Below, one piece after another: positions 11,251 to 64,000 of a stretch of DNA of 64,000 bases; within the stretch, counting starts at the first letter, position 1; every line of letters starts with the position of its first letter. Below the pieces are notes generated by a model. That model was not told where the DNA came from, searched no databases, and saw only the letters and a list, made by a program, of their open reading frames with translations. Origin of the DNA: Dirinaria sp. TL-2023a (lineage: Eukaryota); NCBI GenBank assembly GCA_051941275.1, contig JAVEBF010000006.1, forward strand, positions 1-64,000, given 5' to 3'. Position numbers and translations under genes: made by a program.

Positions 11251-11265
11251 CGGATTTTCGAAAGT
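11251..11265. promoter_or_regulatory. CGGATTTTCGAAAGT motif upstream of the CYP503-like gene
   Basis: About 105 bp upstream of ATG 11147. Differs by one indel from the core of the palindrome at 18013-18040. Confidence 0.35.
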
Positions 11266-12362
11266 AAAGTCGGACAGCTACTGTGACTGCTGTGTCGCAG
11301 AAAGATGTACTGTAACGCCAATCTGCGGTGACAAACTGCATATTTCGCATCGTATCCATAATGATGGTGATCTCAAACCCAATGCCTCGGGGATTCAGGC
11401 TTGAGACCCGCATCTTTCGGACAAAGTAAGCGGCGTAAAATAGACACGCCTCATCAGACACAGGTAGATCGTTCCTCGGCAGTGCAATGCTATGCTCATC
11501 AACAAGTGTCATAGGCTATGATGCTCAGCATTCATGCATCCTGCTCAAGCGATGTCATCGGCCGGAAGATGTGTGGATTGTATCCATCACGGAGAGGAGC
11601 TCGCTAAGGCTGATCTTGCTACGCCTCCATCGAGGGTCTCTGGATCCAGGAGTCTATCAGCTTGATGGCAGGCATCGAGAATCTTAGTGCGAAGTGTGGA
11701 TCGCTCAGAGTCTCATGTGGGTCAAAGTTTGCAAGAGTCCGAGGTTCCGATGGTGGAGTGTCATTTCGGGAATGACCCGCGTGTCCGTACATCTTAGCGT
11801 GGCGCTAGGAAGTTTTCTAGGTACTGCCCGTGTTTGACGTACTGCCTAGCGGGCCATCGTTATTTCGAGCTTGTCATTGGTCTTGGACTCCCTTGAAATT
11901 TCTACAAGGTGGTGTGCTGGCAAGGTCATGACTCCTCGGCAGGTGGCGATCCTTATTGATCGTCCGAGCACGTCGTCGCCGCAAGCAACAATAATGACCA
12001 GCCGCACGCCAAGACAAGGTGTGGCAGCCTTGAGCAATATCTTAACCCACCCACGAAGTCGAGCCTACGAATAAGAAGCAGATCTCGACTTCACGAGCTT
12101 CTAGGCGTTGGAAAGTGACATCAGCTATCATGCACAGCTTCAGCCAACGGAGAAACTTTCAAGGAAGATGCAATCGGGTATGCAGAGAGTCTGAGAGGAC
12201 AAATGCCGGGAGGGCAAAGCACCAGCATCAGTTCCAGGCACACTGTTCGCACTCGCAAATAAGCTTACTACACATAAGATACAGAGCCAACAACGAGTAG
12301 CTGCAATCGCACTTGTTAGTAGTAAGCGACCAGCATCTAATACTTACTAGATCATTGACAAG

Positions 12363-23400: not shown

Positions 23401-26400
23401 GTTTAAACTGATCGCAGTGCCCAAGAAACAACCTAAGAATATCTGCCGAACAGTCAATGTTGTGGCAAGCAGCCACCATGGTTTCATCGTCCAATTCGCG
23501 AGTTTGCATACGAGATAGTAGGATTTGTAAACTGTCGGCCTTTTTACACTCACGGCCTACTTTCCGCAGGATGCTGTTTGTTGTTACAAATTGTGGAGCT
23601 TTGGCAAGAATGGTCTCCAACATCCGAACACTGCAGTGCGGATTGAGGGCAGCCGCGCAGACGAGATCATCGTCAATTTTGGCACTGCTGGTTTGGCTCA
23701 TGAGATACTCTATTACCTCTACGTTTGGACTACCTGCGGCTGCACACTGGCAGGCACTGTCGATCCATGTTATAGGATTTGGAAAAGAGCTTCTTAGGCC
23801 AATAAGAACCTGCACTGTTGTCAAATGGCCATAATAAGCAGCAACCTCTATGGGAGTAAAGCCCATGTGATTTTCCATATCAAGAGAATTCGAGTATGTC
23901 CGTTCGATCTGCGGTAAAAGCTCTGGGAACCCATGCGTGCAGATAAAGAATATAGGATGAGGTGGACTGGAAAGACAAGAATCATTCTTTTCGCGAACCC
24001 AGCCGTCCCACGTACGTGATCTAAATAACTCTTCAATCCAGTGAGTGTAGTAAGACTTTTCGCCACCAACACCTAGGAATCGATATAGTAGATATTGAAG
24101 CCGACCACTCAGTCTGCGTTGGTTCGCCTTCGCGCAATGCGTAGGCCAATGCAATAGAGCATACTTGTAAAATTCTGGTAGGAAGATTTTCTTCGAGGCA
24201 TCGTTATCCTCATTAACTGCTACAACAATTCCATTTCGATCCACATAATTGTTGCCATACAGAAGGCATCTGAGACACAATTCAGCAGCGATAGCATTTG
24301 AAGCATCTGCTGAGAATCTTTCATCGTGTTCTAAAAATTCTCTCACGGATAAGTGAGCAAATCTGAATATGCCGGATTCCTCGTCAAAGACTATGAGACT
24401 CTGCGACATTCGAATTATCTGCGACTTCCTCAATCGATCGATTGGGTTATCTTGACAGATGGATGAGGCCTCCTGCATAATCTTGAGAGTCATGGAATCC
24501 TCTGCACAGATTAGCAGCTTCAATGTAGTTTCCATCACGACACGGGTAGTGGATCCAGAGCGTCCAAGCCTTTCAATTATTCTCGAGTAAGTAGCCTCAA
24601 GAGTCGGTGGTAGTTTCTCTAGAGCTTCCTCAACATCCTCGGCACAATATATATAACGAGCGTCACAGATGGCTGCTACTTGAAGCTCAATCCAGCGAAA
24701 CCTAGAATAGTTAGACATGATCTTCGTGGAATACTGATTCACTAGGTGTGTGCTCACATCCCATTTGCTTTTTGGACAAGGACATCTTCGACCTTTGCTT
24801 TGAGTGCATCCCTAGCTTGCCCCATGAGTAAGTGATTGTTAATCTCCTGCACTACGTATCGTCGAATATCATCGGCGTTGTCCTTAGCCTCGATGTAGAG
24901 GTTCTCTACACCACCGAAGTAACCCAATATGTCGGGTTCATTTCTACTAGAAACTAGGAGCTTGACTACGGTCCGTTGAGGCTGAACAAGTCTCTTGAGA
25001 AAGCGAAACATTCTCGCTCGCCTCCGTATGTCTATCTCGTCAAGTGCATCCAGAACTATAGTTACGTGATCGTAGTGATCTCGGATTAGCTCGAGGGCGA
25101 GATTTTCAATTTGATCCAATGTCAAACCAACGGCTCGACTTCCCATTTCCTTGTCCTGCCTATACTTCTTTATTATAGGTGGTTTGATTGGAAGGCCTCG
25201 GATGGGTGACGCAAGCTGCTGAAGGAGACATCTGGTGATACACTCAGGATCTTCACGCTCATGGTGGCCGGAAGTGCGGGAACAGTGAAAGTAAGCGATG
25301 ACTTCGCCCTCATCGAGCAGCGACTCGGGTGCAAGGCGACTGATTACCTTCGCCCTTAACTCAAGTCAGTAATTCCAAAGCAGCTTGATAAGTTGACACA
25401 CATTAAAGAGCTTTTGCCTGTCCCAGCTGTCATCACTAATTAGTTCTACCCAAGTGAACTCTAAGTAAGATGATGCTCAGCTTACCATCTCCGCGAAGCC
25501 ATAAAAGTGACGACTCAGGAGCCATCTTCCATTGTATAAATTCCTTCTTCTCAAAGAACTAGTCCCTAGTTTCAAGCATCACTCGCTTAAAGATATCGAG
25601 ATATGGACTTCGATAATCACTAGCAGAGACCCAGTCCAAGATAGCTTCTCGCTCTTCGCTTCTAAGTCGGTCGTTATACTGTGAAATCAGTTCGCGTGTT
25701 AGGAGGAATTGCTTGTTAGCTGCTTGCTTGAGTGCCGAAGACTCGTATCTCTGGATTTCGGTCTCATGGTTAAAGATGTCTTGAAGAAGTTCTTTCATTC
25801 TGTCAACAGAGAAGGCCCTGTTGGCGAAGCGGCTTGCTGCATCTCGCGAGTAAAATAATTGTACATTAAGTAAGAAGTTTAACAAACTTCGATAGAGCTT
25901 TTCTAGAGATGATTCTAGCCCGAGGCGAAGAGCATCGTCCACAGGGGGCGTGCCGCGGAGATAAACTTCCTCAAAAGCAGCATACCTAAAGATTAAGCGC
26001 GATGAAGATGCTAGACCCTCTAGAATCAAGACATCATGCTCATGACTATTTGTGATTAACTATAACACTGTCATTTCACGTATATCATGAACGTTGGGCT
26101 CTTTGACTTACGAGAAGAGCGAGACGTATCGCTGCCCAGGGTACGCCAAAGTGTAGCGGATCAATTTGGGAAGCGATGTCTCCGACACTGACAAACTTTT
26201 GGACAGACTTGGCTATGGAGCCATAGATATGACCAAGTTTGACAAGTCCACGACTAGTCGATTTCCCTTTTTCATCTTTGCACTTCGCTTGCTTGTGCTC
26301 TGCGGCTCGCAGGACCTCCTGGCATATCTTCAATTCCGAAGATATAACAGACGGCTCGCCGAGGAAAGAGGATCTATCTCTTTCGATGTCGTCCCGTACA

Positions 26401-29097: not shown

Positions 29098-29781
29098 CTC
29101 GAGACAACATGGACAGGTGAAGCAACTGTCGCACAATCCTTCTTGAACAGCTCATGGGATAGGCACAAGCAGGCTATGATGTATTATATATGCTCGCAAT
29201 AGAGAGGCTGTGTAGAATGCCCAATATACAAGATGATTGCGGATAGAAGATACAAACCATAGTCGGATAGCGCTTGATGCTCCCGTCGCGACTGTCGCCT
29301 CCAAGGACGGGAGACCACTCCTATTTGAGCTATTCGTGGGGTGCCCACCTGTAGCGCTGCAATAACACCATTTTGAGGGACAATAATGATTCGCGGCGGG
29401 GATAATTACTGTTTCCTTGTGAACTAAGCCTCCGAACACTATAGTCTTGAGATAAGTCTTAACAGATCTGCTCTGATTAGCTCTTTGATAAATCCTAGAC
29501 TGCTACTATGTAGATCTATAGTGATCTATCTCGCGCTTCAATAGCATGCAAATTGCCGTAACGTCTTTGACAATCACGGTGCGGGATCTCGTGGTCATAT
29601 GTGCGAAGATCTTGAGCTAAACTCGATTAGATGAAGCGTCACTCAAGAATACAAGCCGAATCCTTCACACAATATCTAAAAATCGTTATCTGCGAAGTCT
29701 TAGATTCGATCCCGGAATTGAAGACGTCCCCTCGGTCCAGGTATATTAGATGTCCTTGTTAAGTGCTTCTCCCTAAGCAGC

Positions 29782-32199
29782 ATGGACAATCTACCTACGG
29801 TGACCGATGCAAGAACATCGCTTATGCCTGTTCCTTGTGTTTGTGATCCGTACTCAATCGATGATGATTTATTCGACACCTTCCCGGAACGGCGCGGCTA
29901 TCGACTTGTGTCACAAGATGGCTTCCCCAAGTTCATCCTGAATGCAGACGGCTCACGACTTACTTCCGAGCAGCTTGCAAACATTGCGCAAGCATGGCTA
30001 TTCTTCGACTTCCTGGCAGCGTTCTTCAGAGCTAGCGGGATCTCAATTGACCCTAATGACTTTGTTCAACGTGAAGGAGCTTACAAATTCATTACCATGC
30101 GCTCGCTATCCAGTTATCTAGATCGCTGGAGCAGAGCAAACGCTCAGCGCTCGAAGCAAATAATAAAAGAGCATTACCGAGAGCAGCAGAGAATCATCAC
30201 GCTCAGTACGGTTTTTCGATATCACCAAATTTCCGACAATTGGTTTCATGACTCGGACTCATGGTCAACGGTTGTTGAGCCGCTCGAAGAGCGCTATAAG
30301 ATGACTATACCGTTGTCGATCGAGCTTTCAATCGCCATACTACAAGAGACACTTGATCGTGCAAGTCGGCAATTCCGCGGTATCAGGCATGATTTGGGTG
30401 ATGGAGAATTCCTTTGCAAAGGGCTGATGGAGAGCCTGCGTGAAGATGGCTGGTGCCCAAGTGAGAGGTCGCTGATACTACAGATGTTTGCGGACACATC
30501 GGCATTTTTTGCAAGTCGACTTGAGAGATTGAGAACAAGGGCCAATCACACAGACTGCACCACCAATAAATGCTTCGCTTTCAACATCAATGTAGACGAA
30601 TATAAAACTCAGCATACGAAAGAATGTAAGGGGTGCACTGATGTGGGCATCTCTCATGATGCATTGGCTGAGATGCTTCGTCTGGGAAAGACACCGCGCG
30701 TGAGAGTCGATATGAAAGGTGGTGATGCCGGCATAGAACTCATGCTGGCAGATTCCGGCCCTTATGTCGCAATTTCCCATGTTTGGTCAGACGGTCTGGG
30801 AAATGCTACCGCTAATGCGCTACCGTCTTGCCAACTACTCCGTCTTGGCAAGATGGTCATGGATTTGGGGATCGAATTCGATCAAGGTCTCCCACAATTA
30901 TGGATTGACTCGCTCCTGGTCCCAGCGAAGAAGGGTGTCGAGAAAAGGTGGGCCCTAAATAGACTCTCGCAATATTATACAGAAGCTACCAAGGTCTTAG
31001 TCCTTGATGCGGATCTGCTTCAGGCTTCAAAATACTCCTCTCAAGAAGAGCAAATGACTCGGCTCTTCTTCTGTACCTGGATGAGGAGACTTTGGACTCT
31101 GGAAGAAGGCATTTTAAGTCGTGATAGGCTTGCGTTCCAATTCCGCGATGGCGCAATCAATATGGATCAGCTTTCGTTCAAAAGCACAGTTTCCGATCGC
31201 CTTGATAATATCGGAAATAATCTGTACAGTGCTCTAGGGATCTTTCTTCCAGATTTAGCTAGCCAACACCAACAAGGTCCTAAAGAAACCCAAAAAGAGT
31301 CAAATACTTTAATTGACCTTCTCCCCGTCCTTCAATATCGTTCCACGACCAAAGCCGCGGATGAAACTATCTGCATCTCACACATACTCCGTCTAGACGT
31401 GTCGACATTGACTTGCATTGAGGAAGCTGATCTCCGCATGAAAGAGCTTTTCAGGCTCCTGGGGGAACAGAAGACCTTGTTTCCACGTCGTCTTCTATTC
31501 ACCAACGAGCCAAAGTTACAGTTTGATGGGACTCAATGGGCTCCTGCGTCATTCATGTCTTTCGACCGCGAAGATGTTCGGTATCTTGTACAGAGTTCCT
31601 CTGAGGATCGTAGCTTTTACTGCATCGATAAAGGTCTTTTAGTCGACGCATTGGATGGTGTCATGCTTGATTTTGGTCAAGAGGTCTTCAAAAAAATTAC
31701 ATTTGTTGAGATTGGAAAGATCATATACGCCCTAACCCCAACACCGATTGGAGAAAACTGTCGAGAACGAAAAAGATGGTGGAGTATGGAACAGCAAGAG
31801 CGAACATTGAGTCCTGACTCGGCGCGTAATTGGAGCCTTGGATGTCAGGAACTGTTGGGACAAAGCCCGCGCCGAACCGCTCTCGTATACGAATCTACAG
31901 AGTCGGCGTTATTAGTCTATATCCATTCCACCGAGCGACTGTCCGACGAAATAAACGACGTTTTACTCTATGCAAGACCCATCAGTCGTTTCTATATGCA
32001 GGAGCTCAAAGTACGTGGTCAGAATTATCCAATAGCCGGAGCGGACGCCGATATAATCAATTTTATAACTCCAAATTGGGATTTTGAGCGGATCGAAGTG
32101 CAGATGCAGGAGGAATTGAGAAACTTTCATGATCCTGCAACCTCGACGTTCTTGCATGGTAAGAGCGTTGATCGATCACAGCGATGGTGCATTGGTTAA
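29782..32199 (+). CDS. HET-domain protein, 805 aa, intronless
   Basis: AQAWLFF, GWCPS, HTDCTTNKC, YVAISHVWSDGLGN, LWIDSLLVP, WMRRLWTLEEG, RSTTKAADETIC. Confidence 0.9.
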   Translation: MDNLPTVTDARTSLMPVPCVCDPYSIDDDLFDTFPERRGYRLVSQDGFPKFILNADGSRLTSEQLANIAQAWLFFDFLAAFFRASGISIDPNDFVQREGAYKFITMRSLSSYLDRWSRANAQRSKQIIKEHYREQQRIITLSTVFRYHQISDNWFHDSDSWSTVVEPLEERYKMTIPLSIELSIAILQETLDRASRQFRGIRHDLGDGEFLCKGLMESLREDGWCPSERSLILQMFADTSAFFASRLERLRTRANHTDCTTNKCFAFNINVDEYKTQHTKECKGCTDVGISHDALAEMLRLGKTPRVRVDMKGGDAGIELMLADSGPYVAISHVWSDGLGNATANALPSCQLLRLGKMVMDLGIEFDQGLPQLWIDSLLVPAKKGVEKRWALNRLSQYYTEATKVLVLDADLLQASKYSSQEEQMTRLFFCTWMRRLWTLEEGILSRDRLAFQFRDGAINMDQLSFKSTVSDRLDNIGNNLYSALGIFLPDLASQHQQGPKETQKESNTLIDLLPVLQYRSTTKAADETICISHILRLDVSTLTCIEEADLRMKELFRLLGEQKTLFPRRLLFTNEPKLQFDGTQWAPASFMSFDREDVRYLVQSSSEDRSFYCIDKGLLVDALDGVMLDFGQEVFKKITFVEIGKIIYALTPTPIGENCRERKRWWSMEQQERTLSPDSARNWSLGCQELLGQSPRRTALVYESTESALLVYIHSTERLSDEINDVLLYARPISRFYMQELKVRGQNYPIAGADADIINFITPNWDFERIEVQMQEELRNFHDPATSTFLHGKSVDRSQRWCIG

Positions 32200-39142: not shown

Positions 39143-41770
39143 TTATTGCTCCTGCAAATACTGTATCACAGACTGGTGACCGTTTTCTTGCGCCAACTGC
39201 AACGGAGTTTTTCCTGCTCTATCCTCTGTTTCTTTTCCGTTAGAGGCTCCCCTTTCGCAAAGGAGCTTGACAACCACTCTTCTCCCATACCTTGCGCCGA
39301 TGTGCAAAGGCGTCCAGGCTTCGGCTTGACTAATCGCACTGAGCTCAGCTCCCGCATCAAGCAGCTGCCGACATATGCTTAGATTGCCAGCCTTAGCGGC
39401 GAACATAAGAGGAGTCCAGGCATCTTGGAATCTTTTGTTCGCGTCTGCGCCACAGAAGAGAAGTAAATGTACCACCTCCTCATGCTGCTGCTCGATGGCG
39501 TAATACAAGGGAGTAATTGGATCTCCAGGACCAATAGCGACATCCACATCAGCATTATAGAAGAGAAGCTTTTCAGCCGAATCTCTAGCACCAGCACGCG
39601 CTGCCATGTGAAGTGGACTTAGTCCAGTAGAGTGCTGTAAATTGGCATCGGCACCGGCCTCCAGGAGTGAGCTCAGAATGTCAAACCGTTCAACAGCGGC
39701 TCCGAGCGGTGTCGCAAGATTGAATTTATCTGATGCGTTGGGATCAACGCCCTTTGACAGCAGCAACTTTACCACATCGGTGTGCTTGCGTATGATCGCC
39801 TCGAACAATGCTGACCATTGGTCTGGATCAGAGTACTTCGCATCGGCGCCCGATTCTAAAAGCACTTTTGCTGCTTGGAATTGACCTTCATCCGCAGCTA
39901 AGATAAGTGGAGTTCGTTTGCGATTTTCGAGTGCGTCCACGAAGCTACCTGCTTCTATGAGGAGTTTGACCGCCTTCTCGTGACCGTAATAGGCAGCGAC
40001 ATGGAGAGCAGTCCATCCATTATTGTTGCGGAGGGAAGTGGTTGACCGATCTTTTGTAAGCTGAGACAACCCAACCGTATCCCCCACCTGCGCAGCAACG
40101 TGTACGGCCGTGTCACCTCTATGCCGAGCCTCATCGCTAAGCATGTAGCGGATTTCTGCCATGCCTTCACCGGCCGCGCTGTGAGTAGAGATCGTGCGAA
40201 TTGGATTATCGTGCAATAACAGCCAGAACTCAGGACCTGGACGCTCATGCGCCTCACTATCCCCTACAGCCAATGTCATGTACACAAAAGCTTCTTGAAC
40301 GCCGTGAGATCGAGCGAGCTTTCTTACTAAAAGAACAGGAGTCGCCCATTGCGGCTTTGGATAGATGATTCGACGTGTCAAAATATAAGCGGTACCATCT
40401 GCGCATGCGCTGTTAAAGCCTCTTATGGACTCCTCATGTTCATCCCTGCTGAGCGTCCCACCACAAAGGAAACTACGACCGGACGTCAAGCCGATACGAA
40501 AGACATATGCTCCAGATACAGCGGGAATACTTTCTTGGATCTTGTATGTTATCCATTCAGCATAGATTCCTCGTTTTTGGAAGTTCAGGTTGTCCATGAG
40601 ATCACCCTCTACGTCGTTCAGATAGGATGGAGCCCACCCATAACCTTCTTTCAACCGCGGTGAACCGTGTAGACATATCAAGCGGGTTGCGTCTTGATAC
40701 TGTGACTCGTAGATCACTTGCGTGGCTTCTTCTCTCGAGAATCTCGACTGCCAATGCAGCTTCAATAGGGGGAAAAACGCGCGGGCGTAATCTATGTCAT
40801 TTCCTGTTCTCCTGCCATAGCAAGCTTTAGATATGGCCGATAGGGTTATCTCAGAATCAGATCTAATTAAGCCGAGCATTGAGTTTTTGAGGACGAGTAA
40901 TTTTTCACTATCCCGGCCGCCAATGGTAACCGACAATTCATGTCGACGGCAGAGTTCCTTCAAGACGTCCTGGAAATCCGCGATCCCACTCGCGGTAAGA
41001 AGCAAAACTTTTGTAGCTAATTTAGCTTCTTGATACGTCCAGATCCTTGTTCTCCACTTGCCACAGCTTAAAGCAACGGCAATATCGACGGGATCCGTCG
41101 AGTGTAGTCTCAACACTATGGCGTCAAACACAATTACAGCTTCTGCTCTCTCGTATACCGAGGCCAAGGTATTGATGATATCTATCTTCAAGGCTTCTTC
41201 GCCCGAAGACAAAGTTCGGTTCCCACCCGCAATGGCCAAGCCATCTAGCCACAACCAGGTAGCGCCTACGGGCTCGATGATCTTGAAAATCTGGTCCAAA
41301 ATGTATCTTGGAAGCCCAAGATTCTGAGGGTCAGCCTGTATGCCTTCCTCCCACACATGAGATAGTGCCATGTAGCCATCCTTTCTGAGACTCCATTCTC
41401 CCTCCCGATTGACGCATAGAGCCGCCTTTTGCATGACGGAAGCTTGCATCAGCTCCAGCGGAGCCTTAACATAACATCCTTGACGCGCTTGTGAGATCAT
41501 ACTCGACAAGGTAGGCTCTAGCGCCACTTTCCGTAAAGACGCGAGTAAGGAATCGAAAGACAGAGCGTCATCGATGATTTTCAGATTTTCTTTCATCCCA
41601 GCAACCTTGCTGAGGACATTCGACAGCTCATCGGGGGTCCATTGACGCACTTCATTCATTGCAATCCTCCGCGCAATGGGAGGTGAAACTCCCCATCGTA
41701 AGGCGGTCTCTTGGAGTGCTCTTGAATGCGGATCTTTAAGCAGTGTCGTGGAGCCCGGCCCGTCACCCAT
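39143..41770 (-). CDS. HET-domain plus C-terminal ankyrin-repeat protein, 875 aa
   Basis: YMALSHVWEEG, LWLDGLAI, WRTRIWTYQEAKLA, then about 10 ankyrin repeats (GWTALHVAAYYGH, WTPLMFAAKAGN). No NACHT motifs. Confidence 0.92.
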   Translation of the reverse strand: MGDGPGSTTLLKDPHSRALQETALRWGVSPPIARRIAMNEVRQWTPDELSNVLSKVAGMKENLKIIDDALSFDSLLASLRKVALEPTLSSMISQARQGCYVKAPLELMQASVMQKAALCVNREGEWSLRKDGYMALSHVWEEGIQADPQNLGLPRYILDQIFKIIEPVGATWLWLDGLAIAGGNRTLSSGEEALKIDIINTLASVYERAEAVIVFDAIVLRLHSTDPVDIAVALSCGKWRTRIWTYQEAKLATKVLLLTASGIADFQDVLKELCRRHELSVTIGGRDSEKLLVLKNSMLGLIRSDSEITLSAISKACYGRRTGNDIDYARAFFPLLKLHWQSRFSREEATQVIYESQYQDATRLICLHGSPRLKEGYGWAPSYLNDVEGDLMDNLNFQKRGIYAEWITYKIQESIPAVSGAYVFRIGLTSGRSFLCGGTLSRDEHEESIRGFNSACADGTAYILTRRIIYPKPQWATPVLLVRKLARSHGVQEAFVYMTLAVGDSEAHERPGPEFWLLLHDNPIRTISTHSAAGEGMAEIRYMLSDEARHRGDTAVHVAAQVGDTVGLSQLTKDRSTTSLRNNNGWTALHVAAYYGHEKAVKLLIEAGSFVDALENRKRTPLILAADEGQFQAAKVLLESGADAKYSDPDQWSALFEAIIRKHTDVVKLLLSKGVDPNASDKFNLATPLGAAVERFDILSSLLEAGADANLQHSTGLSPLHMAARAGARDSAEKLLFYNADVDVAIGPGDPITPLYYAIEQQHEEVVHLLLFCGADANKRFQDAWTPLMFAAKAGNLSICRQLLDAGAELSAISQAEAWTPLHIGARYGRRVVVKLLCERGASNGKETEDRAGKTPLQLAQENGHQSVIQYLQEQ

Positions 41771-42362
41771 TCTCGTACCAATGTTCGTTCTCGACTTTGC
41801 CTGATGGCTGCTAAAAACAATGCAGTCGCAAAGATAATCACTGCCTTTTCTTGTTCATATATAGTCAAGCAAGAAAGACTAAGAGTGGCGCTGTTCCGTA
41901 GGCTGTCAGCCTCGTCGATCAATTTGAATGGGCCTGCAGATCAGTGCATCGGGCCAACTTCTCAAGCCCATCGATTGACTGAAAACGGAGAGCAGATTCC
42001 TCGGGAATATGTGACCATTGGCCTCGCCATTTTTCCCATTGACCTCGATTGCTCGTGTATCAGCCATAGCAGCCTCTCACACATTCAATCAAAATGCAGT
42101 ATTATTCTCTGTTGCTCAGTGGTGATTGGGATAGTGATCTTTGCATCTCCCATGTTAAACCCGTGGCGCAGCGTGAATCCGCTTTCTCTCCCACGGCCCG
42201 ATTGAGCCCTTGTGAGCGGAAAATCAGTCGGCCCGAAATTTCTGCCACGTAGAGCGTCAGCTGAGCGCGAAATACGGTGGTACCTGCTTCTCCGCCGTCA
42301 TCTCCAGCATCATCACCAATTATCTCTTAGTCCTGGTAACACAACAGGAATTCCTCCCAGGG

Positions 42363-47022: not shown

Positions 47023-49134
47023 ATTGGTGAGAGCTCAGAACGTAGTGAAAAGGTCCTGTTGCAAGTTGAGAGCGAGACATGGCTTCTTATACCTGTCCAG
47101 TGTGAATAATGCTCTCTCTAAGGCTTGCGAGATGGACAATTTGCATGTTCCTGGTCCGAAATGGCCATCACCTAGATCCTTGCTATCGCAGTGATCATAC
47201 CTTAGGCTCAAGACCTACAGCGGTGCCTTAGCTTTCGATAGTGTTAAAGAAGTAGCCACGGAAACTAATTTAGTGTCTTGTGCAAGGGGCTCAACATTGT
47301 GGAATTGCGGGGGACCTGATTCTCGCCACTTTGCTCATTGGTGAAAATGGCCTGTTCCAGTGACATGGATACGTTATGTATGCATGAGGTACTGTGGTCC
47401 AGATACGGTAGGTGGCACCTTAGTTCCCGCCTAAAAGCAATTGGTTGGAGTTAGATATACTAAAGCGTCCCTAGCATCTCTCGTGTTCAGTGACTCCGGC
47501 TCATCAAATGCTTGTTGCTAAGACACCCGGCTTTGCTGGAGAACCAAATACCACTAGCAAGCGTTCGAGAACATTCTTAGCAGCACGCAGATCTCACGTC
47601 CATACATCTACCAAGCGTGTGTCTAGATAGATTACCGAACGTAGTCCGCCTTCCTCATATACAGGGTTTCCAGCGTGCTGTTCCTCACATAATAGCGTAG
47701 CACTTGCGGTACATTTTGACATATGACAGCAGGCACTAATGAAGCAAGCTTTTGCACCATTGATGCTTGAGGTTGGGAACTGTATTGAGGGATAGGAAAA
47801 TGGGAGTCGGGGTCAGGCTTTTCAATTGGGTCTGGACTCCACAAGGCCTAAGTTGCAGCTTTTGGGTCGTACACTTTCAAAAGAATCGACTAATTTTTGC
47901 CGCATGATATGTAGCAATTTGACTGCAGTATATGTGCTTCTCGACCAAGCCTCTTGTCCAAGGACACGGGATCGTTGCATTGTCGTCACCTATAGGGCTT
48001 TGTTTTTCAGAACAGCCAGAATAAGCGGTGAGGGCAGTGTTGCAACATACTATCTTGGCACAAAGAAATACTATTGACGATACGAAAGTAGCGGTTACTC
48101 ATTACTCAGGTATCGTATGATCAGGCCACACCTCCAGCTGAATCAATAAATTGAACCAGATATTGAATTTCAAATTTTTCTCATCTGCTCGCTTCTGAAT
48201 GAACTTTTTTTTGACAGAGTCAAAGCGTTGACATATGCACATTTTAGGCTTTCCTCACGTAATGGGCTTGTATTAGCTCTTTCGCATGCGAGTCTGGTCA
48301 TCAGCGAAGGCATATCTGCGGCTGAAGTCGATCGATTGCTGTTTGATCCAATGGTTGCTTGCTGGGCCTGTCTACCGAGCTGCTTTCGGGACACCTTCGT
48401 CTACCGTGGCTTGAGCTTCAACCAAGTCAGCAAAATCCGCATTTCCTTTCCACTTTCGTTCTAGGAAGAAAGATGGTCCACCATCCCAATGCTGTTTTCA
48501 GTCTTGTACGCTGCAGCGTAAAAGATAGCGACAAGAAGGCAGTCCACAGTTCACACGAGCTGATTGATATTGCCGCTGATGTAATCCGGAGCTTTTGGAA
48601 GCCTGGACTTCGAGAGCTGCCTCCCCTGAGCTAAAAATGACTTTCAAACTGATCTTGCTACTCTCCTTCAGACAGTTCAGATGGGAAAAACGTGGAATAG
48701 AAGGAGGAACGACGTCTGTCACTTCGGTATGTCAACAGAAGACTTCTGAATTTTTCTAGCCTCAAGAAACATGATGAAGACGTTGCAGAATGACTAGAGT
48801 AAGCGTAAAGAATAATAACGAGAAGGATCAAAGATATACCTATGTAGGGTCAAATGGAAGAATGAGGCGGAAATGCAGCCAAGTCGAGTCAGCCGGTGAA
48901 AAGAGCAACCGACAACCGAAGTTTTGCCGGAGATTTCGCTGGTGGCTTCTTTTTAACCAAGTAGACAGTCACGATGATATACTATCAGCGAGAGGTTTTT
49001 CCCCTTTACCAAACTAGTAATCCTCTACCAGAGATCTGAAATTACGTCCAGACTGCGGACGTCTGCGACACTGAGTATGATGAAATGTGATCAACGCTAC
49101 TACTCCACTACAACTGTTACGCCCACTGTCTAGC

Positions 49135-50866
49135 ATGGCGTCTGGCTATCATCGGCTTTCAATCAATGATGAGTCTTTCCCTGAAAGTCCCTTCATACCG
49201 AATAGCTCGATCAAAAGCCTCAGCCCCAAGAGTACAAGGAGTGGCAAGTCCAGCCATGGCGACTCTTCCCATGCGGCCTCGGTCCGTCGAAAACACAGAC
49301 TCATCTCTATCGCTGCCGGCACCGTCATGTGTCTTTTCGGGTACGAGCAAGGCGTCTTCGGCGGGATCATCGTAGGCCACGAATTCCAACAGTACTTTCA
49401 TGACCCATCTCCGTCCATGATCGGCCTGGTGACCAGCGTGTATGATCTCGGTTGCTTTGCAGGAGCGATACTTGCCTTGTTTGTTGGAGAATGGCTCGGT
49501 CGAAAACGCATGCTGATCGTCTTTACAATCATCATGACATCGGGCATCCTGGTGCAGACGGCTGCACACTCCGTGACTCATCTCATCTGGGGTCGGATCA
49601 TTGCTGGGATTGGGAATGGAGGGAATACCAGTACCGCTCCTGTGTGGCACGTCGAGACGAGCGTGCAAAATGCAAAGGGCAAGGCGGTGGTCAAGGAGAT
49701 GGTCGTCAATGTGGTGGGGTTTATTCTTGCTAATATCTTTACGCTGCTATTCAGCGGATTGAATACCGAGGCGCAATGGAGGTTCCCGTTAGGTATCCAG
49801 CTTATTTTCATCGTAATTATCCTAACAATGGTCCCTTTGCTTCCAGAGAGCCCAAGATGGCTACTCTCGAGAGGAAGAGATGCCGAAGCAAAAGACATCC
49901 TTGCGTCTTTGAACGAGCAAGACAGCGAAGAGGAATTTCTCGCTATACGGCAGTCCGTCAGGATTGAGCAGGCTACAGAGGCTTCATGGGCTCAGATTTT
50001 CAAGGGTGGTCAAGCCAGCCGAAGATTGCTGCTGGGAATGTTACTTCAAGTATGGTGCGTTTGGACTCCACCGTTTTCGAGACAATTGTCTATTGAACTG
50101 GATCCACTCACCATATCTTAGCCAACAACTGACCGGTATTAATGTTCTTTGTTACTTTCTTCCACTCGTCCTTCATAAGTCAGTCGGTCTGTCCGAATTC
50201 GCCTCTCGTGTTCTGGCCACGGCGACTGCCCTCTTTTACCTGTCAGCAGCCGCCGTCTCCCTTCGGGTTATTGAAGCTTTTCGCCGCCGCACCCTGCTTA
50301 TGTCCATGGCCGCGATGCAGGCTCTTGCTTTTCTCGGTGTCGCCATCAGCACGGAGGTGGGTCACGACCTTACTTCGGGCATCATCGCTACCGTGTGTAT
50401 TTCGGGGTATTTTATTGCCTTCGGCTTCGCCTGGATCGCCATTCCGTGGCTATACCCAGCAGAGATCAACTCGCTGAGTATGCGAACGAAGGGCGCTGCA
50501 TTGGCAACAGCATGCGACTGGCTTTTCAATTATGCGGTCGTGCAGACAACGCCGATAGGGATGCATCACTTGCATTGGGGGATTTACCTGATCTATGCAA
50601 CACTGAATGCAGCATTTGTGCCAGTCGTGTATTATCTGGTGGTGGAAACCTCGGGACGCAGTCTGGAGCAGATTGATAGATGGTTTGAGCTTAATCCAGG
50701 GTGGTTGGTGCATAAGGCGGACCATTCCCCTGTATTTGAGAAAATGACTGTACGCGGTCAGAGCTCAGAATCAGAATCTGCCGTCGAAGAGAGTGAAGGA
50801 ATGGTGCAGGAGTTTGAGAGGGAGAACGAGAGGAGCGGTGCCACGAGGCATCGAATGAGCTTCTAA
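49135..50866 (+). CDS. MFS sugar porter (Stl1-like), 2 exons
   Basis: LFGYEQG, GEWLGRKR, GRIIAGIGNG, WRFPLGIQ, PESPRWL, QQLTGIN, PWLYPAEINSL, ETSGRSLEQID. Confidence 0.93.
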
Positions 50867-56761: not shown

Positions 56762-58432
56762 ATGGCTCTTCCAAACGGGAGTCGGACCTCGAACAACATC
56801 AATAATAGCGGTGCTGACGGCGAAACTAGCCCTCTGCTGCGTGGCGAGACCCAATCTGCGTCCGTGCACGACAGTGAAGCAACCTACATACCATCTCCTG
56901 ATCATGGCAAGGCCGCCTGGCTGTTCTTAGCAGGTTGTTTCGTGATCGAGGGACTCGTATGGGGTAAGCGCTCCATATGCAGTCTTCCATTCTACCTTAA
57001 ACTTGAGCCTCACTGCATGTTTCGAATACCTTGGCCAACTCAGCTTTGCTGTAGGGCTTCCATTCTCCTATGGCGTCTTCGAAAAATATTATCCCGAACA
57101 CCAGCCATGCTCCAAACACCCAGAGGGAGTAGCAGCCGTCGGAACAACCACCACGGTAGGTTTAAAATCTCAATAGAAGGAAGAATGCTAATCGATTTCT
57201 AGGGAGTTCTGTACTTTCTATCTCCAGCTGCTGTTCTGGCTTTACAACGCTGGCCTTCCCATCGCGTTCTGATGACGGCATTAGGCCTAGGAATGGTTGT
57301 CTTGTCTCTCGTCGCGGCATCCTTTGCCACCAGTGTCACCGACCTACTATTCACGCAAGGCGCCATGTACGGCATCGGAGGTGCCTTTCTCTACAACCCT
57401 TTCGTCTTCTACCTCGATGAGTGGTTCATAGAGCGGAAAGGATTGGCATTCGGTATACTATGGGCTGGTACGGGAATCAGCGGCACCTTGGTGCCCCTCA
57501 TCATGGAATGGGGCTTGGAGAATTATGGGTTCAGGATAATGCTGCGCTTCTGGGCAGTTGTCATGGTTCGCTAGCAACCTACTGCGCAGACACGGCAAAG
57601 CGACGCCTTGGCTGACTCGGTACCAGTTCGCAGGTATAGCACCCTTGATGTACGTGACAAGGCCCCGGTTGCCTACGCCAAAAGAAGGAACAACTCGACC
57701 CTTGTACCTTGGCTTCTTCCGAAACCCTACCTTTTGGATATTCCAGGCCGGCAACGTCTTGGAAGGCTTCGGGTACTTCATGCCTTCTATCTACCTGCCG
57801 TGTAAGCAGTTTTCCCAGGCGTATTCAGACCGGCGCTGGACTAATTGAACTGATCAGCTTACGGTTCATCCCTGGGCTTCCCGCCGCTCCCCTGCACACT
57901 GGCAGTATCGATCCTCAACTGCGCTTCCGTGATCGGGACGATCCTCATCGGCTCCTTGACAGACTTCCTACACATTACGACCGTAATACTCATCTCAGCG
58001 CTTGGCTCTGCACTGTCGGCTTTCGTGCTTTGGGGTTTGGCCACTTCGAAACCCGTACTGTACCTGTTCGCTCTTGTCTACGGCGTTTTTGCCGGTGGAT
58101 ACGCTGCGACCTGGGCTGGATGTCTGGGCGAGGTGCAGAGAGATTCGCGAGACGCAGAGGCAGGCGTGGTGCTTGGAATGATGGCGGCGACGAGAGGGAT
58201 CGGGGCCGTGGTCAGCGGCCCCTTGAGCGAAGTGCTGTTCAAGTTTAGGCTGGGAGATGCATCATTGGCAGGTGCGTACGGCACCGAGTATGGAGTGGTC
58301 ATTCTCTTCACAGGGATCACGGCGGTCCTTGGAGGTCTGGGCGCGATCGAACGGGTGCGGATCTGGGGCATGGACGATGGAGAAGTGGAGAGCATTCGAC
58401 AAATTCGATGGACGCACGAGGACATGCGATAG
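56762..58432 (+). CDS. MFS monocarboxylate-porter (Mch-like) transporter, multi-exon
   Basis: PDHGKAAWLFLAGCFVIEGLVWG, YLDEWFIERKGLAFG, GNVLEGFGYFMPSIYLP, YGVFAGGY, RGIGAVVSGPLS. Confidence 0.92.
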
Positions 58433-58592
58433 ACCAGTTATCCTATTCCATAATTTCTATCATAGGCAGCGACGTTGAATCCAGTCGCGCATGCAAATGT
58501 AAATGGCAATTCACTTTTGGTAACAGAAATCCAACTCATGAACCATTCCCCGGCAAGCTGCAAGGGGAAAGGGCCTCAACATTGATGTGTGT

Positions 58593-60034
58593 TCAATTCG
58601 GTAGGTCCTTGGTGGTCGAGAGCAGATGTATTCCTGGAACGGAGTCAGTCAAAACAGTGACGGCATCGATGCGTTGGGCCCGGCTTACCATAGGTTCCGT
58701 CCTCATTACTCCAACAGTCTGTTTCACTCAGACCCGCATCCGCCCAGAGCTGCTCTTGCTGTTTAGTGTTGTACTTGAAGCTATGGACGATCGGTATAGC
58801 CTTCCAACTTTTGAGCAGCCGATTCCCAAAAACAACATCGTCCATCGGAACGAGATACTGATCATGAACCCCCAACGCTGGGTTCCACTCTCCACGGACT
58901 ACCCAGTGTTCAGGGTCGAAGGCCTCGTAGCCCAGGAGATGATTGGCATGGCCCAGCGCATTGAGGACGAAGCGTGAGTTGCGTCCCGCAGGGTCACAGT
59001 ACGCCCGGCGAACCCGTTCGGGGGACATGCAGGCGTCGACGCCGACGAGGATGGACGATACTCCTCCATGCTGGGGGTCGGTGGACGAAGCTTTACAAGT
59101 CAAGGAATTCGCGAAGCCTGCTAGGAATTGGGCGGCTTCGGGGCGAGTGAAGCTGCCGATGGTCGAGCCCATGGATAGGATGCATTTGGGCCGGTGGACG
59201 TTCTCGGGGCGTTGCAGCCATTGGCGACCGTCGTCGTAGGTGCCTAGCAAACCGCGACAGCGCACATGCTTGAATGCGCCGGAGGGGATCTGCTTCAGGC
59301 TGCGCTCCAGCTCGGACTCGGATAAGTCCAGCGCATAGTAGTCGACCTCTGTACCGAGGCTGTCCAGCGCTTTGAGGAGGATTGTGATTTTTCGGAGGTT
59401 TCTGTCATTAGGAATAGTAGTGCTCAGTGTCAGTTAGGTAAGGTAGGTGTGTGCCAGTGTGGGGGGGATCTTGCACTAGCCTAGCCTCGCCTGGAACCTG
59501 CCCCGAACAACCGCCCCCCGGTCACCCGTTGCTAGCTCAGCCGGGGCGGCTACTTGGACTAGGATAGGTATGGAATGTAGGTACGAGTACATGGTATGTA
59601 GGTGATATTATGATACTACATCAAGGAAACAGCTTCCATCCTGGAAATTCTTACCCGCTTCCCAACTCCACCATCATCGTATTCGGCGCAATCTTCTTCG
59701 CCATCTCCTTGCCATACTTTTCCAGCACATGGATCTCCGACTGGGTCAGGTAGTACTCGTCGCTGTAGGTGATCGCTTCAAACAGCTTCAAGCCGTTGGC
59801 GTCCCACAGCAGGAGGGAAGGGAAGGTTGGTGGAGAGTCGCCGGAGGGACCTCCTGCCAGACTTGTGCGGAGGGTTTCCAGCAACGAAAGCTGTTGCTTG
59901 TCGGCCCGGATGTCGATGATAGCGCGAGAAAAGTCGTGATCATAGTCATTCTTATCATCATCAGGGCCGCGGCCATCTTGCTTCGCGTTTCCTTTGAACA
60001 TCGTGGGGATCTCCGGATCTAGTAGAGGAGACAT
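58593..60034 (-). CDS. Stand-alone EgtD/EasF-family (Methyltransf_33) SAM-dependent amino-acid N-methyltransferase, 3 exons
   Basis: FPSLLLWDANGLKLFEAITYSDEYYLT, VELGSG|NLRK, YYALDLS, GTYDDG, MGSTIGSF, LVGVD, AYCDPAG, HSFKY. No fused sulfoxide-synthase domain. Intron 1 is 59402-59654. Confidence 0.92.
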
Positions 60035-60549
60035 CCTTATGATGTGATGGCTTGAATTGAGTTCGGTATTTTCAAGTACTTGTACTCAATTGCTGCAGGA
60101 TTTTTATGTTGTATTTTTTTTTTCAGTGTTTATATACCTTACATTAGTGATGAAGCGCCTCAACGTGTGCGATGGTGATGTCATGCTTAACATCACACCA
60201 CGTCCAACTACTTTACCTTACCTACCTTACTTATTGTTCTACACACATTAGTTTCTTCATTGTTGAACCCTAATTCAACTCCTGCAGCTGCCATTGTAGT
60301 ACTGCGACTTATCATAAAGCGACCATACCCTGATCGCTCGTCTGTTTCTTGTCGCGAAATCAGTCAGTTGGTCGTTCATTTTTCTTTTCCTCTTTCTTCG
60401 CAATCTGATTTGCTTTTCATCTCATTCTCGATGTCAGAGAAAGGTTCGATATGCATATAATCGCCTAGGAGCTGGAAGGAAAAGATATTAAGCCGGCCAA
60501 CTCACGCAAACAATAGCACGTACCATTGGAACCCCGTTCAGGTCTTACC

Positions 60550-62579
60550 ATGGCGCCCGCCCGAAACCCAGCAGTCTCACACGTGGACCTGATCATCATT
60601 GGAGCTGGTCCCGCGGGTTTGATGGCTGCCGCTTGGGCCAGTTCCTATGGCATCTCGACCCGCATCCTTGACAAGAATGCCTCGAGGGTCAAGACTGGAC
60701 ATGCTGATGGCTTACAATCTCGGACACTGGAGATCTTTGATAGCTTCGGCTTCGCAGATCGCCCGCTGAAAGAAGGCTTCCACGTCCTAGAGATCTGCTC
60801 TTGGGTTAGGCGTCTGCATGCCTCCCAGTGACTGTTGAGTGGGACTAGCTGACCCACCTGTAGAACCCAGATAAGAATGGAAGGCTCCAGAGAACACAGC
60901 GAGCCGTGGCCCAACGACCAGGTGTGAGCAGGTTCCAGCAAGTCGCGTTCAACCAGGGCGGTATTGAAGAGATCATCACCGAATTCCTCGGACGCAACGG
61001 TGATCTTAAAGTTGAGAGGAATGTAGAACCCACTAGCTTACACTTGGACCGTGCTGTCATTGATAACCCAGACGCATGGCCTATTACTTTGACCATTCAT
61101 CATGGCATCCCCGATCAAGCCGGAGCAGTTTCTACGCATCGGCTCGTTGATGGCCGCCCTGCACAAAGACATCTCAAAACCCACAGTCAGACCTCACCAG
61201 GTCTTTCTCCTACAGAAGGTGAAAATGAAATCATCAAAGCAAAATATCTCATTGGCTGCGATGGTGCCCACAGCTGGACGCGGAATGAGATAGGGCTCTC
61301 ACTGGTCGGCGAATCCACAGACCAGGTATGGGGTGTCATAGACATCATCCCGCTTACAGACTTTCGTGGGTCTTGTACCGCTGCTGACTGGATCCAATGC
61401 TGACATCTGCCAGCGGATGTTCGACTGTCTTGTGCAATCCACTCTGCTTCATGCGGTACCATTATGACCGTGCCCCGTGAACGCCGACTAGTTCGTTTCT
61501 ACATCCAGCTCATGGAAGTCAGTGAAGGGCGCACGTTTGATCGTTCAAGTGTCAGCTTGAAATCGATATTCGAGACTGCTCAGAAAATCATAGCACCATA
61601 TAAGCTAGAGTACAGTTACTGCGACTGGTGGTCCATTTACCAGATTGGTCAACGCGTTGCTCCCAAGTTCGATGTTGGCCGCAGAATCTTTCTCGCCGGG
61701 GACGCTGTCCATAATCACTCTCCAAAAGCCGGTCAGGGCATGAATGTCTCGATGCAGGATACCTACAACCTCTGCTGGAAGGTTTCCTCCGTCCTCAAAG
61801 GCTATGCCAAAGCCGACATACTCGAAACGTATCACTCCGAGCGTCACCAAGTAGCGGAACAGCTGATCGAGATTGATCATGAAATATCTCGCTTTTACTC
61901 TGTGAATTCTGCCGGCCGAAGCGACTATCAGGCGTTTCGAAACAGATTTGCCAACTTCTTGAGCGGAGTCGCTGTAGCTTATGGAGAGAGCATACTCGTA
62001 AAACCATCAGATCACGAGGTAGTAGATACTAAGAGCTCATCTCCGGTAGCAGTCAAAGTTCAGCTTGGAGCCCGGCTGCCTTCCTACCAAGTGCTAAATC
62101 AGTCCAATGCGAAGCCGACGCAGATTGCGGATATGCTTCGTAGCGATGGTAGATGGCGCATCCTCGTTCTTGCAGGCGACTTGCACGACCAAGTGCACCG
62201 TTCTCGAGTCAACGAGCTGGGAGATGCCTTCCGTCAACTTTTGATACGCTATACCGGTCTTGAGACGCGAATAGACGCAGTCATTGAACTTTTGACCATT
62301 CACTCGGCTCCTCGAGTGGATGTCGAATTATTGGACTTGCACGAGATATATCATCCGTGGGACGAATCTGCAGGTTGGGACTACGAAAAGGTGTACACGG
62401 ATGATCTGTCTCACCATGAAGGGTTCGAGAACGCTTACGAGAAATATGGGATCCACCGGACACACGGCGGCGTAATCGTGTGCAGGCCCGATCAGCACGT
62501 CGGCTGCATAACCTGTTTGGATGAGGCTCCCGGGGTCCTGGAGGATTATTTTGATAGGATCTTGATAAAGCAGAGATAA
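60550..62579 (+). CDS. FAD-dependent monooxygenase, phenol 2-monooxygenase family, 3 exons
   Basis: IIGAGPAGL, GHADGLQSRTLE, GCDGAHSWTR, FLAGDAVHNHSPKAGQGMNVSMQD, C-terminal dimerisation domain with RPDQHVG. Confidence 0.94.
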
Positions 62580-63577
62580 AGCCCCTGGGACTTCGACCGA
62601 GGCGTGGATATCTGTTGCCCATTCGTCAGGCACACTGATTCGCCTTTTGCTTTCCATGCATGTGAGGCAGGGGCTTCCGCTGCGATAGGAAGCTTGACAC
62701 TGCTCCAGAGCGCGGGCCTTTGTGCATTGGATATGCAACTGTGCTTCTTCATCGCGCTAGCTCTATACTATATGTGACGTTTTGGCAAGAAGGCGCCAAT
62801 GATTTGCTCGAAGATTGAATTATCTCACAGACAAAATCTGGACTTTTGCAGGGTAACCTCTAGGCATGCAATTGCTTATACAACTGGTGCTTATGCGCGC
62901 TTGACAGCGCGAGCCGATGTCTGCAATTCCCGTCCAATTTCGCCTTTCTCACTTGCATACCTCACTATAACGAATACCAACAACACCGTTACATCAAGCC
63001 CACAGAGGAGCGCTCAAGCAGTTGCCCAGCCGGGAGTGCGGAGCAAGCTTTCTGACTGCGCCGTGGGCCGGCTGTTCATTGCTTATCTGTTTTAGCAAAC
63101 AGCCGACGCTTATGTTTCGGAGGTTATTGATAATGAGACGGTTATGATTCGCCAACGCTCTACATCCTCTAGGGCGGAAGAGGAAGGTACCCGAGCGGAG
63201 GGTGGTATTCCCAACTTTCCCCCTCCCCAGATCTTCACGAAAATGCACTATCGCCACAGGAGTGACAGGACCTGCTTCGAAGAGGGCATCCCTTGCATGC
63301 ACCATCAATTAGCAATGTCGCTCACCATGGTACTTTCACCTGATTTGCACAGACTTGGCGACTGCTCCGATTGCCGAGGCCAGCTTATTCGGCATGAAGC
63401 TCTGTTTGCACGCAAGCCACCGAAGGAGGGAACGGCAGCAGGTCCTCATGACCTTCATGATACAAATATCGAGCATGTCCTGCATTCACTAGTCCTTGTT
63501 CGACTGTACCTCGCCCTACTGGCAGAATTGCGTTCGGTGTACGAGTACTGCCCTCACAGACTGGACTTTTCCACATC

Positions 63578-64000
63578 ATGGCCAAGCCTGCCGTACTCGC
63601 CATCGGCGGAGGTGACCCTCGCTTGAGTGTCGACGAGGGCAAAAATGGCATCTCATCGATGGCCTACACATTACCACAAATGCGCAAGCTTCACGATGCG
63701 AGCGTGACGTTCGAGGAGTACAATTACTACGCCAGGAAGACGCGGGCAGAGGAAGACTCGGACGCTGCGGAGGAGAGATCAGCTGGTGGCACGACGGGCA
63801 TTCTCGGCGTCATCTTCCCGTCCAAGTCTGACAAGGGCGTCGAGCGTGTGGGCGAGAAGCGGGGCTCCGTGATTGCTGCAACGGTCAATCTGTCGAACCC
63901 CGACAAACGAGCCCAGATCAGCGACGAAGAATGGACCAACGCCAATAGGGCTCTGCGGACAGCGACTTGGGGCGCCATCTTCTATCTGATTACAACAGAC
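63578..64000 (+). CDS. Mtr-type neutral amino-acid permease (Aa_trans), 5' part only; runs off the window
   Basis: Open frame from ATG 63578 to the end: LHDASVTFEEYNYYARKTRAEE...ISDEEWTNANRALRTATWGAIFYLITTD. Absent from the ORF track because there is no stop in the window. Confidence 0.85.
   Translation, partial: MAKPAVLAIGGGDPRLSVDEGKNGISSMAYTLPQMRKLHDASVTFEEYNYYARKTRAEEDSDAAEERSAGGTTGILGVIFPSKSDKGVERVGEKRGSVIAATVNLSNPDKRAQISDEEWTNANRALRTATWGAIFYLITTD

Follow-up and report, generated by a model that had tools for sequence, protein, structure and literature searches.

At the end of a 64,000-nucleotide stretch of Dirinaria sp. TL-2023a (GenBank assembly GCA_051941275.1, contig JAVEBF010000006.1, positions 1 to 64,000 of the forward strand; this whole stretch is called the window below), we find a gene for a stand-alone S-adenosylmethionine (SAM)-dependent N-methyltransferase (MT) and a gene for a phenol-2-monooxygenase-type flavin adenine dinucleotide (FAD) monooxygenase (FMO), which diverge from a common intergenic region. 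Lecanoromycetes, Eurotiomycetes and Dothideomycetes all carry the pair, and it behaves there as a unit of two genes inherited together, because it is linked across lineages, the flanking genes change and the two gene trees agree. We put at about even odds (roughly 0.5) the reading that these genes form a two-gene module in which a phenolic amino acid, probably tyrosine, is N-methylated by the MT and hydroxylated on its ring by the FMO. An earlier note on this DNA, made from the sequence alone, had pointed to the locus (positions 56762-64000) as a candidate cluster for an aromatic amino-acid betaine, with two transporter genes beside the pair. Every part of what it had observed is borne out by gene models and Pfam searches, and the four genes lie at the positions that it gave; its chemical scheme is weighed below.

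Conservation of the methyltransferase-monooxygenase pair

A profile of 27 MT relatives fetched 64 loci on metagenome contigs, and these were searched with the translated exons of the window. We considered a locus to have room for a linked FMO if at least 3.5 kb of sequence lay upstream of the MT gene, which is the case in 22 of the 64. Fourteen of the 22 carry a divergent FMO gene 283-1400 bp from the MT gene, and eight do not. Two shorter loci (L009 and L017) also carry the FMO, bringing the number of linked loci to 16, and the arrangement is divergent in all of them. Many loci are near-duplicates; the 16 linked loci represent about 10 distinct lineages.

The MT tree (78 rows) consists of two clades, and the split between them has an SH-aLRT support of 100. 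Clade A (57 rows) includes all 13 linked rows and the unlinked locus L030, and clade B (21 rows) includes no linked row. Clade B is Egt1, the ergothioneine enzyme, because DinB_2/FGE-sulfatase domains come next on the same strand: DinB_2 and/or FGE-sulfatase follow the MT domain in L027, L037 and L040, and DinB_2 follows it in L053, L057 and L060. (L055, which is too short for the tree, matches L056/L057 and was counted with them.) Among loci with room, the FMO is linked in 14 of 15 clade-A loci versus none of seven of the Egt1 type. The scheme of the earlier note depended on the adjacency of MT and FMO being conserved. It is conserved in these 14 loci and in four named genomes, which were found by a search with the FMO of L014 and a comparison of locus tags with the MT search matches. 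The tags are consecutive in Capronia coronata (MT A1O1_03720, FMO A1O1_03721), Cladophialophora yegresii (A1O7_06310, A1O7_06309), Aureobasidium pullulans (QM012_005362, QM012_005361) and Meristemomyces frigidus (LTR85_005043, LTR85_005042). In Rhizodiscina lignyota and Baudoinia panamericana, the MT and the FMO are each found on equally long contigs.

The flanks of the distant linked loci consist of unrelated housekeeping genes that vary by lineage (Med1, RPN7, mRNA cap methyltransferase, SUMO E1, queuosine salvage, tRNase Z and HAUS6). Five groups of loci recur in the MT and FMO trees: L042 with L010, L012/13 with L014, L001/2 with L017/18, L033 with L039, and the window with L003-5. The pair is conserved far beyond chance, and it is not specific to lichens, since it occurs in black yeasts and in other Dothideomycetes and Eurotiomycetes.

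L030 (10001-13002) and L035 (1128-4225) each hold a second clade-A MT with the same S-Y-N-H-Q signature, beside a gene of the major facilitator superfamily (MFS) that is 62-65% identical to the MFS gene of the window; no FMO or remnant of one lies within 10 kb. L030 and L004 have the same contig-name prefix, so that two paralogous MT-MFS modules may be present in lichen relatives, one with the hydroxylase and one without it. Directly downstream of the FMO, L012 (5720-6700) and L014 (5320-6258) have a Bys1-domain (Blastomyces yeast-phase-specific) gene. The FMO tree places these two loci with Knufia, the MT tree with Exophiala and Capronia; L014 also has an Aa_trans permease about 5 kb away.

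Enzyme families and active sites

The MT had been described as a stand-alone member of the EgtD/EasF family, and its domain, profile and fold matches agree. Pfam domain PF10017 is found on the two large exons (E 6.5e-49 and 1.1e-17). The protein scores 376.7 bits against the NCBIfam EasF-family model TIGR03439 (cutoff 205.55) and 157.4 bits against the EgtD equivalog TIGR03438, which is below the cutoff of 290.9. The Egt1-type domains pass TIGR03439 as well, so this model is family-wide and uninformative on substrate. An AlphaFold model of the MT (27 relatives; pLDDT 84.5) has a sole close fold match by Foldseek, EgtD 6fnr_A (E 4e-24, TM 0.85 on the target, 24% identity). The protein is not fused to a DinB_2 or FGE-sulfatase domain; it stops at 377 amino acids, and the next gene is the convergent MFS gene. 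Its spliced model is letter-identical to the database protein P0001 (377 amino acids), which its source lists as a hypothetical protein from a metagenome-assembled genome of a lichen fungus (Dirinaria sp.).

We mapped the substrate residues of EgtD onto the family through a profile alignment to Mycobacterium tuberculosis EgtD (Table 1), using 91 clade-A rows, of which three are Egt1-type rows misfiled in that group, and 20 Egt1 rows. The three residues that bind the carboxylate are retained in clade A. Those at the alpha-amine and around the histidine side chain are replaced, and the Egt1 sister clade keeps Asn166, Thr213 and Glu282. PDB 4pip is an M252V/E282A variant of EgtD with bound tryptophan, which shows that positions 252 and 282 control the accepted aromatic side chain. 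The MT should bind a free alpha-amino acid other than histidine, because the carboxylate binders are kept, the histidine-recognition sites are replaced and 4pip demonstrates the specificity role of positions 252 and 282. A departure from the histidine type is what the betaine scheme needs. An invariant polar trio (N268, H306 and Q308) could bind the hydroxyl of a phenol or the NH of an indole.

Table 1. Substrate-binding residues of EgtD and their counterparts in the MT of the window and its relatives. Residue roles are those given in PMC8593015.
EgtD residue	Role in EgtD	Window MT (P0001)	Clade A	Egt1
Tyr56	carboxylate binder	Y94	Y 62/63	not covered
Tyr206	carboxylate binder	Y261	Y 91/91	Y 16/17
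Ser284	carboxylate binder	S334	S 91/91	S 19/20
Asn166	binds alpha-amine	S210	S 78/91	N 20/20
Thr213	contacts imidazole via water	N268	N 88/91	T 15/17
Met252	side-chain pocket	Q308	Q 85/91	A 20/20
Glu282	imidazole side	V332	V 75/91	E 20/20

Proteins of clade A (P0034, P0036, P0038 and others) are named "Ergothioneine biosynthesis protein 1," "Histidine-specific methyltransferase" or "4-dimethylallyltryptophan N-methyltransferase" in public databases and UniRef. The residue pattern suggests that all three labels are wrong for clade A. A phylogeny with known members of the family had been proposed as a check on the MT. Of this, the tree covers the part that concerns Egt1, in the split between the sister clades.

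The FMO likewise belongs where the first reading of the sequence had placed it, among flavoenzymes of the phenol-2-monooxygenase type. It has FAD_binding_3 (PF01494) on all three exons and Phe_hydrox_dim (PF07976, E 2.1e-58). Its best solved relatives are the phenol hydroxylase structures 1pn0 and 1foh (E 1.6e-138, full-length alignment, with the 95% identical protein P0121 as query). The equivalents of Asp54, Arg281 and Tyr289 of 1foh are kept in P0121, and the same motifs are found in the translation of the window FMO. On the linked side of the FMO tree, the equivalent of Arg281 is present in 36 of 36 rows, that of Tyr289 in 36 of 36 and that of Asp54 in five of five. These three residues we take, from mutant studies, to be the catalytic set of phenol hydroxylase. 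The chemistry expected of the FMO, judging from its sequence, is ortho-hydroxylation of an existing phenol to a catechol.

The FMO tree (134 rows) is unrooted. A clade of 97 generic fungal phenol monooxygenases, separated by a branch with a length of 0.56 and a support of 100, contains none of the 14 linked FMOs. The data allow a single origin for the linked FMOs but do not prove it. Several residues distinguish the linked side (37 rows; P0121 numbering) from the generic clade: Tyr in 37 of 37 rows versus Phe at position 414, Arg in 37 of 37 versus Phe at 428, Ser in 36 of 36 versus Thr at 326, and Ser in about 80% versus Arg in 100% at 258. These are leads only.

Proposed pathway and competing explanations

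In the pathway that we favor, the MT and the FMO would make up a self-contained two-gene module under one bidirectional promoter. The MT would hold a free aromatic alpha-amino acid by its carboxylate and methylate the alpha-amino group with SAM; the substrate would most likely be tyrosine or another phenolic amino acid, and the product would carry one to three methyl groups, three making it a betaine. With NAD(P)H and O2, the FMO would hydroxylate the ring ortho to the phenol. The two steps would end in a DOPA-betaine-type catechol amino acid with N-methylation, and in DOPA betaine itself if methylation is complete. The SLC16-like MFS transporter and the permease of the amino acid/auxin permease (AAAP) family, which have joined the pair in this lichen lineage, may move substrate or product. 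The data themselves establish the gene models, the families, the residues at the active sites and the conserved, co-inherited state of the pair; tyrosine as the substrate, how many methyl groups are added, which step comes first and what the transporters do are what we infer here. The scheme of the earlier note (import, N-trimethylation, hydroxylation to a catechol betaine and export) has partly held up. It is chemically reasonable, and it fits the retained adjacency, the non-histidine residues of the MT and the phenol-hydroxylase equivalents of the FMO. Its link to the lichen product sticticin lacks the esterifying enzyme, which is not in view.

The proposed logic parallels that of ergothioneine biosynthesis, in which an aromatic amino acid is N-methylated and its ring is then functionalized. 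The MT shares PF10017, the fold and the carboxylate-binding Tyr/Tyr/Ser triad with EgtD and with the MT domain of Egt1. It differs from EgtD in its low overall identity and in its specificity residues (Asn166, Thr213, Met252 and Glu282 become Ser, Asn, Gln and Val), and from Egt1 in not being fused to a DinB/FGE sulfoxide synthase. The partner of the MT here is a flavin phenol hydroxylase, not the sulfur-inserting iron enzyme of the ergothioneine route. EasF/FgaMT resembles the MT in passing TIGR03439 and in being a stand-alone fungal enzyme; unlike the ergot enzyme, the MT has no dimethylallyltryptophan synthase (DMATS) or other ergot gene near it, either in the window or in the flanks of its relatives up to 10 kb. 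Stand-alone fungal homologues of EgtD that trimethylate tyrosine or tryptophan were reportedly described by Vit et al. in ChemBioChem in 2015. Their reported activity is the one that we propose for the MT. Papers that cite this work give no details on residues or substrates of the fungal homologues. We know of no flavoenzyme partner described for these betaine synthases. Homologues of EgtD are frequent in ascomycete and basidiomycete genomes, according to a review (PMC9103826).

The FMO shares with the phenol hydroxylase of Trichosporon cutaneum (1foh, 1pn0) the FAD_binding_3 and C-terminal dimerization domains and the Asp54/Arg281/Tyr289 equivalents. The linked FMOs differ from this enzyme and the generic fungal ones in lying outside the 97-row clade, in scoring below the cutoff of the NCBIfam phenol 2-monooxygenase model NF006144, in having invariant residues of their own and in having an amino-acid methyltransferase gene, not ring-cleavage genes, as their partner. 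As for the product, sticticin is described in PMC6332210 as the methyl ester of a trimethylammonium 3,4-dihydroxyphenyl compound (DOPA betaine) from Sticta and Lobaria. Its trimethylammonium and 3,4-dihydroxyphenyl skeleton is one that this pair could make. Unlike the proposed product, it is a methyl ester at its carboxyl group, and we see no candidate enzyme for the esterification; moreover, it is reported from Peltigerales, not from this lineage, and the gene pair is far more widespread than the compound. Literature searches turned up no paper on genes for sticticin, tyrosine betaine or DOPA betaine, and full-text searches found no partnership of an MT with a flavin monooxygenase; most subscription journals lie outside these searches, so that the absence is unproven. 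A Trichoderma paper that contains both "EasF" and "phenol 2-monooxygenase" was considered as a precedent and set aside, as it treats the two separately.

Several observations speak against the pathway that we favor. We found no metabolite or enzyme data for any member of the pair. The clade-A locus L030 has 10 kb of upstream sequence and no FMO, and a search of this locus for an FMO remnant returned nothing at E values up to 10. The FMO, with P0121 as a stand-in, reaches 479.2 bits on NF006144, below the cutoff of 560. With a midpoint root of the unrooted FMO tree, the label "linked" requires five changes. Ser258, Tyr414 and Arg428 of the linked FMOs are putative substrate-pocket residues and only leads. 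The order permease-FMO-MT-MFS is found only in L003-L005, whose MT is 66% identical to that of the window, and the RNA evidence given below comes entirely from one sample (X1, X2 and X3 being the same). Finally, the alpha-amine binder Asn166 of EgtD is Ser in the MT. Since this change touches the alpha-amine site, the methyl count is not fixed at one, two or three, and processive trimethylation is not assured. EasF itself is a mono-methylase.

The main uncertainty is that the same two-step logic could serve another chemistry. The MT might stop after one or two methylations or take a different hydroxyaryl or indolic amino acid (for example, m-tyrosine, 5-hydroxytryptophan or a kynurenine-type acid), or the FMO might act first, for instance on the free amino acid, with the MT then methylating the catechol amino acid. 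In favor of such variants, Ser replaces Asn166 in most of clade A, the MT passes the EasF-family model and not the EgtD equivalog, the polar trio suits several hydrogen-bonding side chains, and no observation decides which step comes first. We judge a chemistry of this kind unlikely, as the Tyr289/Asp54/Arg281 set of the FMO presumably marks an enzyme that activates an existing phenol. In addition, the DOPA betaine ester sticticin is, according to PMC6332210, a real lichen product.

It is considerably less probable that the two genes are mere neighbors, with only the bidirectional promoter holding together an MT for an unrelated betaine and a catabolic hydroxylase of phenol, resorcinol or hydroxybenzoate. 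In favor of this, the FMO is of the phenol hydroxylase family, the pair has no conserved third pathway gene next to it, and L030 retains an MT without an FMO. Against this, the pair persists over at least three fungal classes while every flank changes, the linkage seen in 14 of 15 clade-A loci with room is absent from all seven Egt1 loci with room, and both gene trees group the loci alike. The linked FMOs also stand apart from the generic clade with invariant residues of their own (e.g., Arg428), and a ring-cleavage dioxygenase was not seen in the scanned flanks. Least probable by far is that the MT is a histidine enzyme (hercynine/ergothioneine) or a dimethylallyl-tryptophan enzyme (ergot-type EasF) with its partner genes elsewhere. 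The names given to its relatives in source databases and UniRef point that way, as does the passed EasF-family model, but these names are automatic, not experimental. The replacements N166S, T213N and E282V affect histidine-recognition residues that true Egt1 keeps, and the EgtD equivalog score is under its cutoff. Separate Egt1 loci (L040, L043 and L044) share contig-name prefixes with the linked loci L005, L003 and L004, respectively, and neither Trp_DMAT nor FGE-sulfatase occurs in the scanned pieces of the window or in the flanks of the linked loci.

Returning to methylation and ring hydroxylation of a phenolic amino acid, a wider and rather doubtful hypothesis is that an unrecognized two-gene pathway to a catechol betaine (DOPA betaine) is common to lichen-forming fungi and melanized black fungi from three or more ascomycete classes, and that this pathway is the missing core of sticticin-type lichen alkaloids. 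If so, DOPA betaine would be a small redox-active or metal-binding zwitterion made by ergothioneine-style logic, and an undescribed metabolite would be predicted in Exophiala, Cladophialophora, Capronia and Aureobasidium. A catechol betaine product would also be a second member of the ergothioneine-style protective small molecules of stress-tolerant fungi and would provide a genetic handle on a class of lichen alkaloids. The enzyme family is known; its conserved pairing in a two-gene arrangement and the product class predicted are new. The proposed pathway is minimal and lacks a backbone enzyme, and standard cluster finders would miss a locus of this kind. The proposal is directly testable in culturable carriers with sequenced genomes, such as A. 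pullulans and C. coronata.

Gene models, transcripts and neighboring genes

The features of the locus are listed in Table 2. The FMO model is 92-95% identical to the full-length database protein P0121, and the divergent spacing of 515 bp between MT and FMO given earlier is exact, with the start codons at 60034 and 60550. The absence of a classical backbone gene also holds, with neither a DMATS nor a sulfoxide synthase near the pair in the window or in the relatives' flanks. No domain of either kind was found among 74 open reading frame (ORF) pieces of the window, comprising 64 ORFs of at least 110 amino acids upstream of the locus and 10 pieces of the locus itself. In the relatives, Trp_DMAT and FGE-sulfatase were looked for in the flanks of eight linked loci, with no match.

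Table 2. Features of the locus at positions 56762-64000 of the window.
Feature	Positions	Strand	Basis or details
SLC16/monocarboxylate-transporter-like MFS gene, several introns	56762..58432	+	Pfam MFS_1, structural matches to monocarboxylate transporters (MCT), RNA contigs
Stand-alone EasF/EgtD-family SAM-dependent N-methyltransferase (MT), 377 amino acids	58593..60034	-	exons 60034-59655, 59401-58689, 58633-58593
Bidirectional intergenic region, 515 bp, MT and FMO start codons on either side	60035..60549	.	sequence read
Phenol-2-monooxygenase-type FAD monooxygenase (FMO), 640 amino acids	60550..62579	+	exons 60550-60804, 60864-61365, 61414-62579
AAAP-type amino-acid permease, exon 1 (N-terminal tail and first membrane segment)	63578..64000	+	cut by window end

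Contigs from RNA libraries of a close relative (90-99% alike; runs X1-X3, which are one lichen sample) bear on these models. Spliced RNA contigs confirm five of the six introns of the MFS, MT and FMO models. The joints are 57154>57202, 57564>57626 and 57799>57858 in the MFS gene, 58632>58688 at intron 2 of the MT gene, and 60803>60863 and 61365>61414 at both introns of the FMO gene; all are GT..AG joints at the modelled intron positions. Intron 1 of the MT gene (59402-59654) is bridged by none of the RNA contigs listed. Because such joints are present in the RNA contigs and none of them is present in the DNA run X4, we conclude that the MFS, MT and FMO genes are transcribed and spliced as modelled in the close relative. 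The permease exon is covered by RNA contigs as well. Over 63423-64000, these have a word depth of approximately 44, about five times that over the MFS, MT and FMO genes (approximately 5-9), a contig depth that cannot rank genes. Neither DNA run X5 nor the word shares of the runs, which are all small, say anything about habitat.

The intergenic region contains, near its middle, the inverted repeat GTGATGT-N8-ACATCAC at 60175-60196. This repeat is not shared by the intergenic regions of L004 and L005, where a direct GGTGACCT repeat is found instead, and the intergenic DNA of the window gives no meaningful alignment with these two counterparts. An RNA contig of the relative starts by 60428, which gives the FMO a 5' untranslated region of at least about 120 nucleotides. 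Within 60044-60427, stretches of 111 and 229 bases are skipped by a DNA contig of run X4, which is from a related lichen metagenome. Because of these two skips, the length of the promoter is seen to vary between relatives, with both coding regions remaining aligned.

The transporter families are those named at the outset, an MCT-like MFS protein and an AAAP amino-acid permease, the latter through its orthologue in L005. The MFS gene, which is convergent with the MT gene, matches Pfam MFS_1 alone, on two exons. Its exon at 57203-57574 (123 amino acids) has as solved relatives MCT10 (E 3e-9), MCT8 (8.5e-8) and MCT1/2, and these four transporters account for the top 12 of 14 solved matches. The other MFS exon tested has no solved-structure match, and the ESM Atlas returns only "MFS" for an MFS exon. 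MCT10 and MCT8 carry aromatic amino acids and thyroid hormones. Orthologues of the MFS gene are found beside the MT in L003-L005, with 73-80% identity. Exon 1 of the permease is 71% identical to exon 1 of the corresponding gene in L003-L005. The window piece, which is exon 1 only, has no Pfam match, and the later exons of the L005 orthologue match Aa_trans (PF01490; E 5e-17 and 3.6e-4), the AAAP/Aa_trans family to which Mtr of Neurospora crassa presumably belongs. Beyond the permease, L005 continues with an unnamed ORF and a glutaminase A gene. The two transporters are lineage-specific additions to the pair. On the MFS side, a sugar transporter (Sugar_tr) is found both in the window (49084-50863) and in L005 (15954-17665), so that synteny with L005 extends past the four genes; this is not by itself evidence of clustering.

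Elsewhere in the window, three cytochrome P450 genes lie within 2225-14175 (2225-3934, minus strand; 7572-8671, plus strand; 9378-10480, minus strand), near a gene with a fungal rhodopsin domain (PF20684; 5264-5665) and an MFS gene (12777-13214). This group, about 45 kb from the MT/FMO locus, may be a separate small metabolic cluster. Genes of the self/non-self-recognition type occupy 20486-26059, 29722-32196 and 39146-41854, and comprise a large NLR-like gene (NACHT_N, NPHP3_N and ankyrin repeats), a HET-domain ORF of 825 amino acids and an ankyrin-repeat protein of 903 amino acids.

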